This document shows, one piece after another, positions 12,865 to 53,551 of a stretch of DNA of 64,000 bases. The stretch lies in the NCBI GenBank assembly GCA_951406725.2, contig OX597821.1, positions 97,030,001 through 97,094,000 of the forward strand. Direction: 5' to 3'. The translations under genes were made by a program, and so were the position numbers. The DNA is from Octopus vulgaris (taxonomy: Eukaryota). A model generated the notes under the pieces. The model did not search any database. It saw only the letters and a program-made list of their open reading frames with translations, and was not told where the DNA came from. The stretch's first letter is position 1; every line of letters begins with the position of its first letter.

Positions 12865-12902
<38 letters not shown>

Positions 12903-12920
12903 GGATATATATATATATAT

Positions 12921-13085
12921 ATATGGCTATAGGGTGGTGGGGGTGTTACTGTTGCATTTAGCCCCAGGCGAACATCGACGTCACCAGAAAGGCTCGACAC
13001 CGTCACGGTGCCCTAAACCTATCAATTCGCAATTCCTCGACGAATTCTCACTATGCAGGATTTCTTATAAATTTTCAAGCAAAAT
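12921..13085 (-). repeat. Inverted partial copies of the 359-bp unit
   Basis: 12931-13020 and 13035-13085 are reverse complements of unit segments, separated by a 14-15 nt filler. Confidence 0.9.
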
Positions 13086-13336
13086 GACGGTGTCGAGCCT
13101 TTCTGGTGACGTCGATGTTCACCTGGGGCTAAATGCAACAGTAACACCCCCACCACCCTGCCCTGTCCCTAGCCATATTCAGATGGCTTTAGTCCCTTAT
13201 GTTATCGAGCAGTTACTGTCTATATCCCTTTTAGAGAATTATTATTGCTTTCGAACAGATTTTCGAAATCAGCAAATGTATTTTGCTTGAAAATCTATAT
13301 AAGAAATCCTGCATAGTGAGAATTCGTCGAGGAAGC

Positions 13337-13422
13337 GGAGGCCTACCACACGCCGATGATAGGCAATACACCTTGAAACCATGGTCCGTGTGTGGTTTCC
13401 GCTTCATCGGGGAATTACCTCC
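13337..13422 (-). ncRNA. Type-I hammerhead-like fold, unit 1, minus polarity
   Basis: Minus strand: GGAGG-taatt-CC, CCGATGA, agcg, GAAA, CCACAC..GTGTGG, T, A(cleave), GG-CCTCC; stem II reduced to a 4-nt linker. Confidence 0.6.
13345..13396 (+). ncRNA. Type-I hammerhead ribozyme, unit 1, plus polarity
   Basis: ACCACACG, CCGATGA, t-AGG-caataca-CCT-t, GAAA, C-catg-G, T, C(cleave), CGTG(tg)TGGT; palindromic ACCATGGT stem III; predicted GUC cleavage after 13386. Confidence 0.8.
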
Positions 13423-13703
13423 CTTTGCAGGTTTAGGGCACCGTGACGGTGTCGAGCCTTTCTGGTGACGTCGATGTTCGCCTGGGGCTAAATGCAACAG
13501 TAACACCCCCACCACCCTGCCCTGTCCCTAGCCATATTCAGATGGCTTTAGTCCCTTATGTTATCGAGCAGTTACTGTCTATATCCCTTTTAGAGAATTA
13601 TTATTGCTTTCGAACAGATTTTCGAAATCAGCAAATGTATTTTGCTTGAAAATCTATATAAGAAATCCTGCATAGTGAGAATTCGTCGAGGAAGCGGAGG
13701 CCT

Positions 13704-13755
13704 ACCACACGCCGATGATAGGCAATACACCTTGAAACCATGGTCCGTGTGTGGT
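13704..13755 (+). ncRNA. Type-I hammerhead ribozyme, unit 2 (minus-polarity partner 13696-13781)
   Basis: Identical to unit 1, offset +359. Confidence 0.8.
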
Positions 13756-14062
13756 TTCCGCTTCATCGGGGAATTACCTCCCTTTGCAGGTTTAGGGCAC
13801 CGTGACGGTGTCGAGCCTTTCTGGTGACGTCGATGTTCGCCTGGGGCTAAATGCAACAGTAACACCCCCACCACCCTGCCCTGTCCCTAGCCATATTCAG
13901 ATGGCTTTAGTCCCTTATGTTATCGAGCAGTTACTGTCTATATCCCTTTTAGAGAATTATTATTGCTTTCGAACAGATTTTCGAAATCAGCAAATGTATT
14001 TTGCTTGAAAATCTATATAAGAAATCCTGCATAGTGAGAATTCGTCGAGGAAGCGGAGGCCT

Positions 14063-14114
14063 ACCACACGCCGATGATAGGCAATACACCTTGAAACCAT
14101 GGTCCGTGTGTGGT
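14063..14114 (+). ncRNA. Type-I hammerhead ribozyme, unit 3 (minus-polarity partner 14055-14140)
   Basis: Identical to unit 1, offset +718. Confidence 0.8.
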
Positions 14115-14960
14115 TTCCGCTTCATCGGGGAATTACCTCCCTTTGCAGGTTTAGGGCACCGTGACGGTGTCGAGCCTTTCTGGTGACGTCGATGTTCGCC
14201 TGGGGCTAAATGCAACAGTAACACCCCCACCACCCTGCCCTGTCCCTAGCCATATTCAGATGGCTTTAGTCCCTTATGTTATATATATATATATATATAT
14301 ATAAATTATCAATTCGCAATTTAAAAACCAAAAGGTACAGGTACTATCGTCACAAAAGTGACTTAGGGTGCAAATCAGCACCAGCATTGCTAGAAATAAA
14401 AGTCAAAACAACTCTTTGCCACGGGATTACGTTTTCTGTAAATTTGAACTGTGTGTGTGTGTGTGTGTGCGTGCGTGTAGATGAGCAGCGGACATGAAGT
14501 TCTGCTATAATTGTGTTTGAAATATAGTTATGGTTTATTTTCCTCTTTTATTTACACGGAGGAGTAAGCCCGAGATTAAAATGATCAAACAATTTCGTGC
14601 AAAAGACTATAAATGAATCAGACCAGAGTATAAATACAGCTTAAAGCTAAAGATTTATTACATAGCGTTTACAAGTGTTAACGCTGTAATAATTTACGAA
14701 TTGCTTGCAGTTAAGTTCATCTTAATGATGTTTTAATTAAGAAACGCATGTGGAACAAGTGTATTTTACTGATATTTACTGAATGACGAGAGCTATTCAT
14801 TGGTATTTTACAGCTTAATGCAACTGTTTCGAAGACATATCAAAATGAAACGTAAGAAGTTAGCAAAACGGATATCTTGCGTCGAGCATTAGAAGAAAAA
14901 GTCATACATACACAGATGCACGGGCGCTCACTTATACACAGATGCACACATATAAACACA

Positions 14961-47499: not shown

Positions 47500-48087
47500 T
47501 TGTTATGTGTTAGTCGTAGTATAGTAGTGTTCTCGTGATGTTGTTAGTAGTGGTGGTGGCGTTTGTAGTAGTGGTGATGGTCTTTTGTAATAATGGTAGT
47601 AGTAATAGTAGTAGTAGTAGTGGTGGTAGTGTTTGTAACAGTAATGATATTGGTTGTAGTGGTGGTGGTGGTGTAGGTGATAGTAGAAGTGTGGTAGTGT
47701 TGGTGCTTAGGAGTGTATGTGGTGGTGGTGGTGGTGGTGGTAGTTAACGTTATTGTTGCTGTTGTTGTTGTGAGCATTATTGATGTTGTTATTATAGTTG
47801 CTGATGCTGTAAACTGTTGTTGTTTCAATTGCTGGGGGTGCTTGCTTGCTTGTTGTTGTTGTTGTTGTTGCTGTTATTGTTGCAGTGGTTGTTGCAATGA
47901 TTGCTGTTGTTGCTCTTGTTATTACTGTTGTTGTTGCAATGATGGATGTTGTTGTTGTTGTTGTTGTTGTTGTTGATCTTGTTGCTGCTGTAGTAGTCAC
48001 TGTGACACCAGCCTCACCAGTTAAAGCAGCTAAGTGATGCTGGAACGTCATCGTCATCGTCAACAACACGAATAATATCATCATCAG

Positions 48088-48125
<38 letters not shown>

Positions 48126-50785
48126 GCGGCAGCAATAGAGGCAGCTACTTAATGCAGTAAGTGGTGTAGCAGCTAGCAGCATTATATACGTCTATATAAT
48201 CGGCTAATGTTCATATAGGTGATGGTGATGGTGATGGTGATGGTGATGGTTGTAATGGTTGTGGTGGTTGTGGTGGTGGTGGTGGTGGTGGTATCGATGA
48301 TAGTGGTAGTTGTGTTGTGTCGGTTGCAACGGTAGTCGTGATGGTGACAGTAATCGAAACAGTGTCGGCGGTGGCAGTTTCGGCGGTAGCAGCTGCGGCG
48401 GTGGTGGTGGTGGTGGCGGCGTCGGTGGTGGTGGCGATGGTGGTGGTAGTGGTAGTGGTGGTGGCGGTAGTGGTAGTGGTGGTGGTGGTGGTGGCACGGT
48501 AGTGATGGTGGTGGTGGTAGTGGTGTTGGTGGTGGTGGTGGTGGCAGCGGTAGTGATGGTGGTAGTGGTGGCGGTGGTTGTGGCGGTGGTGATGGTGGTG
48601 CCTCCGCCAGTGGTGGTGGTAGTGGTGGTGGTGGCGGCGGCGGTAGTGGTGGTGGTGGTGGTGGTGGTGGTGGTGGTGGTGGTGGTGGTGGTGGTGGTGG
48701 TAGTTTGGCGGTGGTGGTGGTGGTGGTAGCTTGGCGGTGGTGACGGTGGTTGAAATAGTGCTGGTCATGGTTGTGATTATTTTGGCTGTAGTGGTGGTGG
48801 TGGTGGTGGTGGTGGTGGTGGTGGTGGTAGTGGTGATAGTGGTGACGGTGGTGGTGGTGGTGGTGGTGTTGGTGTTGGTATTCAGGTGGCAGTGTTGATG
48901 TTGTTTGAGCTGATGTTGTTGATTCTGTGGTTGTTTAACCTCAAATCAGTTCTGATTCGGTAGATCTGTTACGAACGAAAGCATTCCAGCCGTGACCATC
49001 CTGTCTTTTAAGAGTTCTTTAAGGACTACATTATCAAACATAACTTTCCTATTTTGAAAACAGTTGAGTGCGATTTTAGGGAGATTTGGCTGTTATATTT
49101 AGCTGGTTGAGAGATCAAATAGAGGTTCCTTCAGTAGAGGTGGTGGTCACAACAATGGCATTGGACATAATGTTAGGGGTGAGGGTGTCGAGGGTGATGA
49201 TAGTGGGTGGATGGTGAGATGACAGGATGGTAGCGGTTTTGTTGATGGTAATAGAGGATGGTGGTGGTGGTGGTTGTGGTGGAGGTGGAGATGGTGGTGG
49301 TGGTTGTGGTGGAGGTGGTCATGGTGGTGGTGGTGGGGATACTAGCGATGGTGGTTGTAGTATTGATGATGGTAGTAGCGATACAGATATTGTTTGTGTT
49401 GACAATTGTGATGATGATGATGATATTGGTTGGGTGATGCGGGTGGTGGTGGGGTAGGGGTGATACGGATGTTGATTGCTGCTGGTAATGGTTGTTGGTT
49501 GTTGTTGTTGTTGGTGGTGGTGGTGGCGGTGGTGGTGGTGGTAGTGGTGGTGGTGGTGGTAATTGTGTTTGTGATAAATGATAATGGTTATAGTCCATGG
49601 TTTGATGATGATGATGATGATGATGACGATGACGACGACGACCACCACCACCACCATCGGGTGGTGGTGGTGATGGTGACGGTGGTGGTCGTCGTCGTGA
49701 TAGTGATGTTTGTAATGGCGGTGATAATGATAGTGATAGCGACACGTTGGTGGTAGCGGATGATGACGGTGGCGCTCATGTTAAGTGACGGAGAAGATGG
49801 AGATGATGGTGATGATGATGGCGATGGTATTGATGGTAAAATCGGTGGCAAGGTTTAGGGTTAGGGTTAGGGGTGAGTGGATGTATTGATGAAGGATATG
49901 CTGGTGGTGTTGGTGATGGTGGTGACGGGTGGAAATGGAGGTACAACTCGTTGTAATGATGGTAATGGTGGTGGTGGTGGTATTGTTTACCGTAGCTCAT
50001 GTTCTTGTTGCCCTTGTTGTAATGGTATGGCTATTGGTAATGTGTTAGCACTTGGTGAGTTGCCTGTGTTAAAAGACGTGTTGGTACGTGGTGTCCGGTA
50101 ATAGTACTGATATTGAGCTGTTGTCACTGTAGTGATGGTGGTAGTGGTGGTGGCTGTGGTGGTGGCGGCAGTGGTTGTGGTGGCAGTGGTTGAGGTGGTA
50201 GTGGTTGAGGTAGTGGTGGTGGTAGCAGTGGAGTTGGTGGTGGTGGTGGTGGCAGTGGTTGCAGTGGTTGTCGTGGTAGTGGTTGAGGTAGTGGTGGTGG
50301 TAGCAGTGGAGTTGGTGGTCGTGGTTGTGGTGGCGGCGCTGTGACTGAGGTGGTTGTAGTGGTTGAGTTGGTGGTGGTAGTTGCGGCTGTGGCTGGGGTG
50401 GTTGTGGAGGTCGTGGAGTTGGTGGTGATGGTGGTGCTAATGGTTCTTGTAATGTCACGATGGTTGTGGAAGTGGTGCAACCACATCACAGATCAACACC
50501 TTCCACCAGTCATACCATCACAACAACAACACCCCTACAGCTAATCACCATCGCCATCACCACCACCACAATGACAACAATACTGTTACATTGTTTGTGA
50601 TTGTGGTGGTAGTGGAGGTAGTATTAGAAGTGGTAGTGGTGGTGATGATGATGATGTGGTTGTGTTAGATTGAAGTATGGTGGTGCAAGGAGTCATGTGA
50701 TAGTACAGTTTGGCGCTAGTGTCATTATTAGTTTGGGTGGTAGTGGTGGTAGTGGTGGTGCCAGTGCCATTATTAGTTTGGGTGA

Positions 50786-50848
<63 letters not shown>

Positions 50849-51936
50849 GTGATGGTTCTGGTGATAGTATAGCTAGTTGTAGTTGTGGTGATAGTGCGTG
50901 AGTGGTAGTATGACTAATATAGTGTAGTAGTTGTGGATGCTTTGTGGTATATGTGGCGGTATAGTGAGTGGTCAGCTCAGCTGACACAACGGTTTTGTTG
51001 TAGTTGGTAGTTTTAACTCGTATGTTGTCGATATTGTATTGGCTGTAGTATTGTAGTATGGTTAGTTATTGCTGTTATGATGATTTAGTGGTATAATATG
51101 GCCACGTAGTACGTGGTCGATTTGTCGTATTGTTGCAGTAGTGGTAGTAGTATGATAGGTATGGTAATGTAGGGCTGGTTAGAGTTAATATGGCACTGGT
51201 GGTTGAGATATGGCAAATAACATGGCTGTGGTTGTGTTGTAGTGGCACCATAACGGACCATTTTATTGTTGCAGTGGTAGTAGCAGTGGTAGTAGCAGTG
51301 GTACTTGCGATGGTAGTAGGTATGGATGTGCTTTGGTTAATGGTATGATGTCTGATTGTACTGTGGTAGATCAACTTGTTTAGTCTACTTGTTGTACTGA
51401 TGGTGGTACTAGTGGTATGGTCACTGGTGTGGTAGTGGCGGTAGTAGTAGTAATAGTAGTAGTAGTAGTAGTAGTAGTATAGCTGGTGAAGTGGTGTAGT
51501 GGTATAGTTAACTATTTGTACTGATGGTGGTACTAGTGGTATGGTCACAGGTGTGGTGATGGCGGTAGTAGTAGTAATAGTAGTAATAGTAGTAGCATAG
51601 CTGGTGAAGTGGTATAGAGGTATAGTTAACTATAGTAGTAGTAGTAGTAGTGGTGGTGATGATAGTGGTGGTAGTACATTTAGCTATAACAGTAGTAGTT
51701 GTGGTTGTGGTGGTGGTGGTGGTGGTGGTAGTGGTGGTAGTAGTGGCGGTAGTGGAGGTGGTGGTTAATAAATGGTCAGCTGTAGTATTATTATTATTAT
51801 TATTATTATTAGCTCTAGCAGTAGTAATAGTCGTAGAAGTGGTGTTGGTGGTGGTGGTGGTGGTAGTGGTGGTGGAGGTGGTGGTGGTGGTAGTAGTGGC
51901 GGTAGTGGAGGTGGTGATTAATAAATGGTGAGCTGT

Positions 51937-52022
<86 letters not shown>

Positions 52023-53021
52023 CAGCAGCAGCGGCAGTAGTTGTAGTAGTAGTAGTGGTATTGGTGGTGGTAGTCGTGGTGGTGGTGCTCGTGGTGGTGG
52101 TCGTCGTGGTATTGGTGCTGGTGGTGCTGGTGATTGTACGGTCAGTGCTGTAGTGTTTCTGTGGTAATAATGATGTTTTTGATGTAGTATGTGATGTAGT
52201 GGTAATCAGGCGGTGGTTCTGTTGTGATAGTATGATTTACTGGTGTTGTTTGTCATGTGACTGTTGGTAAGAGTGATGGTATGGCTAGCAAAATAGTGTT
52301 GAGGTAGTAGTAGGCTTCACAATGGTATGGTTATTGATTAGCAGAATGGTTGTGTTGTGATATCTGTTTCTCTTGATATTGTTGTAGCAGTGGTAGTGCT
52401 GGTGGTGGCATTGGAGGTGGTGGTGGTGGTGGTGGTGGTGGTGGTGGTGGTGGTGGTATCGAAGAATGAAATCCTATGATATCAGTACTCGTGTTAGACG
52501 GCAGTGGTGGTGGTGGTGGTGGTGGTGACGGTGTTGGTGGTGGTGTTAAGGTGGTGATAGTAAGTGATAATACTGTAGGGATGTTAGTATGGTGACAGTG
52601 GCACTGTTTGTGGTGGTGGTGGTGGTGGTGTTAGTGTTGTTGTTGTTGTTGTTGTCGGTGATGGTGGTGGTGGTGGTGATGGTGGTGGTTGTAAGGTGAT
52701 GATAGTGATAGTGCTGCTGATAGTAGTAGAGGTGGTAGTGTTTGTGGTAGTGCTGGTATTGTTGTTGTTTGTGCTGTTGTTGTGGTTATTGGTGATAGTG
52801 TTTGTGGTAGTGTTGGTGGTGGTGCTGATGATTGTAGAATTTGTGGCTGTTCTGTGGAAATGTAGGTGCTCGTGGCAGTAATGATAGTGGTACTGGTAGT
52901 AGTAGTAAGTGGTAGTTCTGGTTGTAATGGGTGGTGGTGGCTGTATCCCTGATAGTTTTAGTGCTGCCGGTGATAACAGATACTTTAATATTATTGCTAC
53001 AGCTACAACACCCTCACTATA

Positions 53022-53080
<59 letters not shown>

Positions 53081-53141
53081 CACCACCACCACTACTACTA
53101 CAACTACTACCACCACCACCACCACTACTACTACCACCACC

Positions 53142-53200
<59 letters not shown>

Positions 53201-53219
53201 CACCACTACCACCACCACC

Positions 53220-53271
<52 letters not shown>

Positions 53272-53272
53272 G
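47500..53272. repeat. Degenerate trinucleotide low-complexity domain (GGT/GTA/GAT/GTT)
   Basis: Direct; G/T-rich on + until about 52980, then CTA/CCA. Confidence 0.9.
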
Positions 53273-53551
53273 TCTTAGTATTACTATTTACAGCGCTACT
53301 GCAAAGCTATTGAAACTACTATTAACGATGACCAATGCTATTCCGAGTTCTGCATCGACGAACTCTTAGACTCTCTCAGACTGCAAGGTTGGTTCCAGTT
53401 TTGTGTTGGTACTTTTATCTCGAAAAGCTTCATTCGAGACTCATTCCGGCTTCACACATATTCAGTCCCACAGAAAGATACGTGTGTGTGTGTGTGTGTG
53501 TGTGCGTGTGTGTGTGTATAAAACTATGCCTTCATATATATATATATATAT

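Follow-up and report, generated by a model that had tools for sequence, protein, structure and literature searches.

A probable Octopus vulgaris retrozyme with one plus-strand hammerhead and a recently gained hammerhead-like motif on the minus strand

A tandem array in the genome of Octopus vulgaris is interpreted here as a young retrozyme that a Penelope-like element (PLE) mobilises; its plus strand would carry one hammerhead ribozyme, working but attenuated, and its minus strand a recent motif with weak cleavage or none. We assign this reading a probability of roughly 0.6. The array was analysed within the window, a stretch of 64,000 nt of contig OX597821.1 to which all coordinates refer. 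It comprises 3.3 units of 359 nt arranged head-to-tail (13085-14282) that differ at one base. The layout of the insertion is given below, with unit positions numbered from the plus-strand cut site.

12867 to 12924, no strand: left (TA)n target microsatellite
12931 to 13020, minus strand: inverted 5'-truncated arm, unit 132 to 43, adjoining the left (TA)n
13020 to 13034, plus strand: junction filler of 15 nt, identical to the right flank at 14307-14321
13033 to 13085, minus strand: second inverted fragment at the arm junction, unit 307 to 253
13085 to 14282, plus strand: main arm of 3.3 retrozyme units, running from position 58 to 178 of the unit, with its 3' end abutting (TA)n
13565 to 13608, plus strand: 44-nt 'tail' bounded by unit 178 and 222, the 3' end points used family-wide; found on one end of two-armed insertions
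14281 to 14302, no strand: right (TA)n target microsatellite

The left end of the inverted arm is atypical in that it does not lie at unit 222, and the 15-nt filler (13020-13034) probably marks where, at insertion, copying jumped to target DNA as template. The 359-nt unit has a G+C content of 168/359, holds no tRNA or Pol III box, and is predicted to fold as a circle at -113 kcal/mol (z -4.9 for the plus strand over 60 shuffles and z -2.3 for the minus strand). Elsewhere in the window, a long low-complexity tract rich in GGT/GTA/TGA and with strong GC skew spans 47850-53300.

The preliminary description of this DNA had assigned a type I hammerhead with a GUC site to the plus strand at 13345-13396. 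Pairing analysis bore this out, with every listed element present, and the motif recurs in each unit.

13345 to 13396, plus strand: type I hammerhead, copy 1, with a C4 core, U.U at the base of stem II and a palindromic stem III; predicted cut after 13386
13704 to 13755, plus strand: type I hammerhead, copy 2; predicted cut after 13745
14063 to 14114, plus strand: type I hammerhead, copy 3; predicted cut after 14104

In the first copy, stem I pairs 13347-52 with 13387-92, the core CCGAUGA occupies 13353-59 and GAAA 13375-78, stem II (AGG/CCU) has 3 bp over the U.U pair, and stem III has 2 bp closed by the palindrome ACCAUGGU. Folding of two copies of the motif is predicted at -11.9 kcal/mol per copy, compared with -3.4 kcal/mol for the monomer, while the nearest-neighbour model places the plus fold in full context 8.5 kcal/mol above the ensemble. 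A search of 13200-13800 against Rfam matched neither the plus nor the minus motif at E<=10, which leaves motif and pairing analysis as the basis of both ribozyme calls and cleavage as a prediction. Indirect support for selection on the plus ribozyme comes from its core variants across relatives, which include the U3-A8 swap, from stem III loops, which are mostly palindromic across hammerhead families, and from the 5' ends of insertion arms, 4/91 of which fall at unit 359 or 2, beside the predicted plus cut (P 0.007).

The youngest form of the element has at least 1,186 exact matches to a 44-nt string in the 2.8 Gb genome, alongside 165 older units of clade C, which carries the minus motif, and 243 units (counted as pattern matches) of clades A/B, which lack the minus core. 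Canonical U4 type I cores gave at least 1,775 matches, compared with 21 for a reversed control, and among the families so matched are sister retrozymes of 352-353 nt that align with the 359-nt unit along its length. The canonical cores span unrelated families (e.g. L040/L082/L083, L045/L050/L084/L085, L049/L079-L081 and L041/L056). At locus L075, a canonical core lies inside a 910-nt tandem with both orientations, and a separate (TA)n-linked repeat (L032, L035 and L036) reads, by its letters only, CUGAUGA followed by two bases and GAAA on one strand.

Simple two-armed inversions were present at 36/50 young loci. Outer ends were plus-strand 3' ends in 88/98 cases, lay exactly at unit 178 or 222 in 73, and were nearly all in (TA)n, where the 98 exclude two incomplete ends and include two that were probably mis-called. 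One end of each class was found in 36/39 two-armed loci, so the 44-nt tail is on one side only, and the older clades without the minus core end at the same two points, 178 and 222. Most arms (78/91) are longer than one unit, the longest measuring 5,374 nt, and multimers reach 15 units. Arms start at internal points away from the cut, which would fit rolling reverse transcription on a circle. There was no minus-templated fixed insertion end among the 98 outer ends of the 50 young loci, and the ten plus-5' outer ends are scattered, thus giving no sign of a minus-strand template.

On sequence grounds, the 359-nt element is therefore assigned to the animal non-LTR retrozymes, with PLE-type insertion from a plus-strand template. 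It has the tandem non-coding unit within the expected ~150-450 bp, GC below 50%, type I motif per unit, self-paired circle, dispersed copies and co-occurring PLE of a retrozyme, and the inverted 5'-truncated arm, one-sided tail and microsatellite target of PLE-type insertion. An inert satellite, expanded as DNA and with no ribozyme activity on either strand, would accord with the lack of an Rfam match and with the non-canonical plus core, and the accessible text of a 2026 preprint (10.64898/2026.07.22.740005) favours local tandem amplification of such repeats; yet the two-armed insertions are dispersed and keep a fixed phase, the core has compensatory variants and some arm ends lie at the cut, all of which makes this explanation very improbable.

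A young genomic element with a 781-aa frame for an RT and a GIY-YIG domain is a candidate partner for the retrozyme: it ends in (TA)n and has two alternative ends ~38 nt apart. It is a candidate only, because a comparison of this one PLE family (8 loci) with the retrozyme unit detected no shared sequence (best E 0.19). Loci L367-L374 (e.g. L371:1706-4048) hold a young PLE family of near-identical copies with an intact 781-aa RT and C-terminal GIY-YIG frame, whose terminal repeat features a minimal hammerhead-like motif with a U3-A8 core, together with (TA)n targets and a one-sided tail of ~38 nt. No RT-bearing frame was recognised by eye beside 23 other hammerhead or pattern loci.

The minus-strand motif overlaps the plus hammerhead and is antisense to one arm of a rod that extends plus stem I.

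13337 to 13422, minus strand: stem-II-less hammerhead motif, copy 1; putative cut 3' of A13344
13696 to 13781, minus strand: copy 2 of this motif, in a region where the units are identical
14055 to 14140, minus strand: copy 3, likewise identical
13324 to 13344, plus strand: 5' arm of the rod, which extends plus stem I; its pairing partner is the antisense of the minus core, and it underwent repeated changes once that core had arisen
13387 to 13417 (unit 1-31), plus strand: 3' arm of the rod, which is antisense to the minus core; unchanged on the internal branches of the carrying clade, and in the youngest form complementary to the plus core at 14 of 14 bases

Stem I is formed by GGAGG (13422-18), a UAAUU bulge and CC (13412-11) opposite GG-CCUCC (13343-37), giving 2+5 bp, and is followed by the core CCGAUGA (13410-04), the linker AGCG (13403-00), GAAA (13399-96), a stem III of 7 Watson-Crick pairs (13396-90/13351-45) and a GUA site with its A at 13344. 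All of these elements had been listed in the preliminary description and all are present, with each of the 14 named pairs Watson-Crick. The claim that they make a second complete core holds for the conserved bases and fails for the structure, which has no helix II: only four bases lie between A9 and G12, and the motif is consequently without a loop-loop contact. Two caveats that accompanied the claim, U4C in both cores and no real stem II on the minus strand, also hold in pairing analysis. The suggestion that one helix serves both ribozymes was correct in that the helix is shared, with the refinement that its two uses are offset by 2 nt (plus register 13352:13387, minus register 13396:13345).

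This anatomy could be that of a nascent ambisense retrozyme, in which the minus motif would be a working minizyme that was selected on arising. It would act as a monomer or as a dimer through AGCG, a linker that could form two G-C pairs in a minus dimer, and its minus multimers would come from read-through of inverted arms or from RNA-to-RNA copying of circles. We consider this doubtful, if deserving of serious weight: the full set of conserved core bases, the GUA site and the 7-bp stem III speak for it, while the missing helix II and U4C speak against it. The minus motif exceeds shuffle chance. With a loose definition (any linker of 2-20 nt, stem I of at least 2 bp), minus-type motifs occurred in 60, 2 and 0 of 3000 dinucleotide shuffles for a stem III of at least 2, 4 and 7 bp, respectively. 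With the plus ribozyme held fixed, the figure was 11/20000, which is a further point in favour of minus activity, under a null that leaves aside the neighbouring plus core as a possible template. The real minus strand has one further weak match at the loosest setting. A search of the octopus genome for a canonical U4 minus core nested in the same way gave 6 matches versus 2 for the control; one of the six was a private variant of the retrozyme family, three belonged to an unrelated repeat without a plus core and two were chance-like.

Anatomy and predicted folding together argue against efficient minus cleavage. The minus fold is predicted to come within 8.5-9.5 kcal/mol of the ensemble only in a window of ~7 nt, with the 3' end of the transcript at 13342-13336, and to lie 20.6 kcal/mol above it in full context once the rod has formed. 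The energy model undervalues both folds, and is a poor judge of activity because the plus ribozyme also scores 8.5 kcal/mol above the ensemble; in the model, the plus fold alone is compatible with the rod. For nascent minus RNA before stem III closure, the predicted minimum-energy structure is a 14-bp core:anti-core trap, which would form first because the antisense of the plus core is transcribed before stem III can close, and this kinetic trap counts further against a working minus ribozyme. Along the lineage, the best-case minus penalty runs 11.6, 10.8, 8.7, 9.7, 9.0, 7.7 and 8.8, with no steady fall. In the accessible part of a survey of natural hammerheads, the smallest stem II is one pair, and U4C considerably reduces activity while still allowing viroid infectivity. 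Engineered minizymes with four-base linkers, as far as the available portions of two reports describe them (PMC544870, PMC10766806), are generally below standard hammerheads, with some equal, and their dimers can be good; such in vitro activity of minizymes and dimers supports the idea of a functional minus motif. In the recent preprint, so far as its accessible text goes, only 1/9 predicted retrozyme dimers cut (10.64898/2026.07.22.740005), which weighs against it. Contigs of four sequencing runs covered the unit in every case and closed at unit length in 2/4, as tandem DNA also would. A single contig of run X2 ends at 13342, one base off the predicted minus cut, an end to which we give no weight; the 26 letters ahead of 13326 in the same contig are what we take to be a template-switch adapter, which would mean plus-sense cDNA.

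The history of the minus core was traced on a tree of 95 alignable units from 105 chosen loci (10 were too short), with 8 sister units as the outgroup. Core-carrying units form one clade, C (split support 100). The minus core is present in 62/69 clade C units, 0/26 clade A/B units and 0/62 canonical sister hammerhead sites. At 14 diagnostic columns, the outgroup agrees with A/B at 8 and with C at 0, and median tips are 0.010 and 0.009 for A/B versus 0.006 and 0. Taken together, the agreement of the outgroup with A/B and the greater divergence of the A/B copies identify the minus core as a gain. The minus strand of A/B reads CCGAAGA-AGCG-GAUG or CCAAGA-AGCG-GAUG/GAUA and, judged from this comparison, most of the minus motif pre-existed as rod-stem sequence, with three substitutions on the C stem completing the core. 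These amount to 3/20 changes of the gain branch within 11 core positions (P 0.007-0.024). One further C-stem change yielded an A-U pair that closes minus stem III, and one gain-branch change fell at the free position 7, a point against selection for minus cleavage.

This history does not sustain the original interpretation of the array as a DNA copy of a circular RNA that self-processes both strands: the element descends from single-hammerhead retrozymes within the genome, its minus core is a late gain, older clades without the core were inserted with the same ends, and among the fixed insertion ends of the 50 young loci none indicates a minus-strand template. A captured exogenous viroid-like replicon, with ancestral ribozymes in both strands, would share the size, the self-paired circular fold (z -4.9, -2.3) and the nested cores of viroid-like RNAs. 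It deserves next to no credence, given homology along the unit's length to single-hammerhead families of the same genome, the derived state of the minus core and 0 matches among metagenome contigs. A loose version of the nested pattern was found in 100 stretches of viral contigs, 4 of which had an upstream core-like string, and none looked hammerhead-like by eye.

After the gain, the 31-nt arm took 0/60 changes on internal branches of clade C, compared with 5.1 expected (P 0.006), although P is 0.16 for the 11 core bases alone and 0.05-0.07 (Fisher) against A/B, and the region was drawn after the data had been seen. The same branches placed 8 changes in the partner arm and 8 in the plus ribozyme, and in A/B the 31-nt arm took 7/108 changes. 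Together, the frozen arm and its changing partner hint modestly at selection. A burst followed by a freeze is what a minus ribozyme selected on arising would leave on the tree, as is a 19-nt arm that is exact in 78/94 older clade C units, the other 16 having single-locus or recurrent single-base changes; the non-significant results for the core alone and against A/B count the other way. The rod 5' arm also appears to adapt after the 3' change (on a quick tree with some chimeric rows) and the clade with the minus motif is the most amplified, both in keeping with a selected minus ribozyme, but core-less clades spread likewise and minus-templated ends are absent. Locus L281 is one insertion in which a proximal minus stem I pair is broken in both arms. 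The distal part of minus stem I reaches perfect pairing in no form but the youngest, and no compensatory pair was seen in it, so the covariation of the minus core that the preliminary description proposed to seek among genomic copies is missing from the minus-only stem. Insertion-level variants in the minus core and linker numbered 0 at 50 young loci, where too few were expected for the result to be telling and the bins were offset by one base. Free mutation of the core across family copies, together with no minus cleavage, had been named as an outcome that would reduce the element to an ordinary one-ribozyme retrozyme; such mutation was seen across the family as a whole, where the core is absent outside the carrying clade (0/62, 0/26), and was not seen within that clade, where the core is frozen.

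The source lineage of clade C accumulated ~0.10 substitutions/site, compared with ~0.009 of drift in basal copies. This roughly tenfold higher speed could reflect either many serial copying rounds or RNA-level copying, and the latter would be compatible with a functional minus strand. No asymmetry between A>G and T>C, as a mark of editing, was seen (8 vs 9 in clade C and 7 vs 11 in A/B). A full conversion, in which a retrozyme lineage acquired an antisense ribozyme by point mutation, cuts its minus multimers and replicates by symmetric rolling circle, strikes us as improbable.

Along the lineage, the plus core gained Watson-Crick matches to the downstream arm, from 7-8 through 10, 11 and 12 to 14 of 14, with two adjacent double substitutions in the plus ribozyme among the changes; one large subfamily, UUGACGA, went back by one pair. 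For this convergence of the plus core on the same 14 bases, the favoured explanation is that nascent cDNA folds back and template switching copies one core onto the other. Core:anti-core fold-back is also the predicted minimum-energy structure of nascent cDNA, and template switching would require such a substrate. Identical C4 cores are thus possible without minus catalysis, and the shuffle null understates chance accordingly. Alternatively, pairing of the plus core with the arm could itself be the selected trait, either as a folding switch that damps re-cleavage of circles or by folding nascent cDNA off its template in the course of rolling reverse transcription. The stepwise gain of complementarity to 14/14, including a U4C that is costly for catalysis, would make sense under such selection, as would the predicted minimum-energy status of the fold in the nascent minus strand, both as RNA and as DNA, and the attenuation of the plus core throughout the clade. 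On intact plus RNA, however, the pairing was rejected as the main fold, since the rod outcompetes it and leaves it 20.9 kcal/mol above the ensemble, and the UUGACGA subfamily lost one pair; this leaves selected pairing a slim prospect. Clades A-C all have non-canonical plus cores (UUGAUAA, UUGACGA, UUGAUGA and CCGAUGA) and lack the stem I internal loop of the sister families. A slowed plus ribozyme in these clades may have favoured stable circles. At locus L028, both units of one arm have G8A in the plus core and lack the corresponding U3; damage to the template thus did not prevent its insertion.

For the PLE-mobilised retrozyme with a single working hammerhead, the cycle would begin with transcription of a genomic array, to which one contig weakly points. 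With its palindromic stem III probably joining two copies into a dimer, the plus hammerhead would release 359-nt monomers, as the arm ends and core covariation indirectly suggest, and a host ligase would close the circle, a step taken from the literature. The RT/GIY-YIG enzyme of a PLE, the presumed agent of the observed architecture, would then open (TA)n and prime on plus RNA, at unit 178 for one side and at 222 for the opposite side, before rolling round the template to give two inverted multi-unit arms. The minus motif would be the antisense of the rod 3' arm, its stem sequence having been completed by three substitutions.

The second core appears on one branch and then freezes, and hundreds of natural copies lie on either side of this gain; because such natural before and after variants exist, one transcription experiment would decide minus cleavage. 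If the minus strand cuts, the motif would be a natural hammerhead without helix II. If it is inactive, the family would provide clear evidence that animal retrozyme arrays arrive ready-made by PLE-type insertion of a plus template, and would document a route to a false 'ambisense' signature.

Animal non-LTR retrozymes, in the accessible parts of the reports (PMC7229834; 10.64898/2026.07.22.740005; also PMC7761336 for these traits), resemble the octopus element in their tandem units of 170-400 nt (350-390 nt in mussel; PMC7229834), one type I hammerhead, GC below 50%, self-paired circle and co-occurrence with PLEs. The octopus unit differs in its second, stem-II-less antisense core and its attenuated plus core (C4 or U3 variants). 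The axolotl hammerhead HHR_Amex2, as partly accessible, likewise shows U.U at its helix II base and is more effective in dimeric form. All described retrozymes have one ribozyme according to the available part of a 2024 review. The main text of PMC7229834 never mentions polarity, antisense, inverted, microsatellite or octopus, and the text of 10.64898/2026.07.22.740005 does not refer to polarity, antisense or 'both strands', although its supplements might list invertebrate families. Our literature search, with most subscription journals outside its coverage, found no two-polarity animal retrozyme and no natural stem-II-less hammerhead. Endonuclease-bearing PLEs are described, in the portion available (10.1101/2021.04.23.441226), as having an inverted 5'-truncated copy, a one-sided tail of 30-40 bp and a (TA)n preference, a layout matched by the retrozyme (44-nt tail) and by the local autonomous element (~38 nt). 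Unlike PLEs, the retrozyme is non-coding, forms rolling multimers and has no detectable similarity to the local PLE terminal repeat. Engineered minizymes and maxizymes (PMC544870, PMC10766806, in part) share with the minus motif a short unpaired A9-G12 linker and a possible dimer through it, but are synthetic, have U4 cores and were assayed at 10 mM Mg2+.

Avsunviroids, hammerhead satellites, CarSV and 'symmetric' cccRNAs are likewise small paired RNAs with cores of both polarities facing each other in a rod. Both ribozymes of avsunviroids, satellites and CarSV are complete, being of type III with helix II. All three replicate RNA-to-RNA, whereas the octopus element has a recent minus motif without helix II and DNA copies from plus RNA only; neither a structurally complete ribozyme in both polarities nor conservation of both across the family was found. 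Animal HDV-like RNAs, as far as the accessible source goes, carry hammerheads in both strands and are not genomic repeats. Viroids have been proposed to be escaped retrozymes, with a replicating retrozyme intermediate named as the missing evidence in the available part of PMC8781251; were the octopus lineage indeed to have acquired a minus ribozyme for symmetric rolling-circle replication, its genome would hold dated intermediates of the retrozyme-to-viroid transition, in which only three substitutions separate the forms on either side of the gain.
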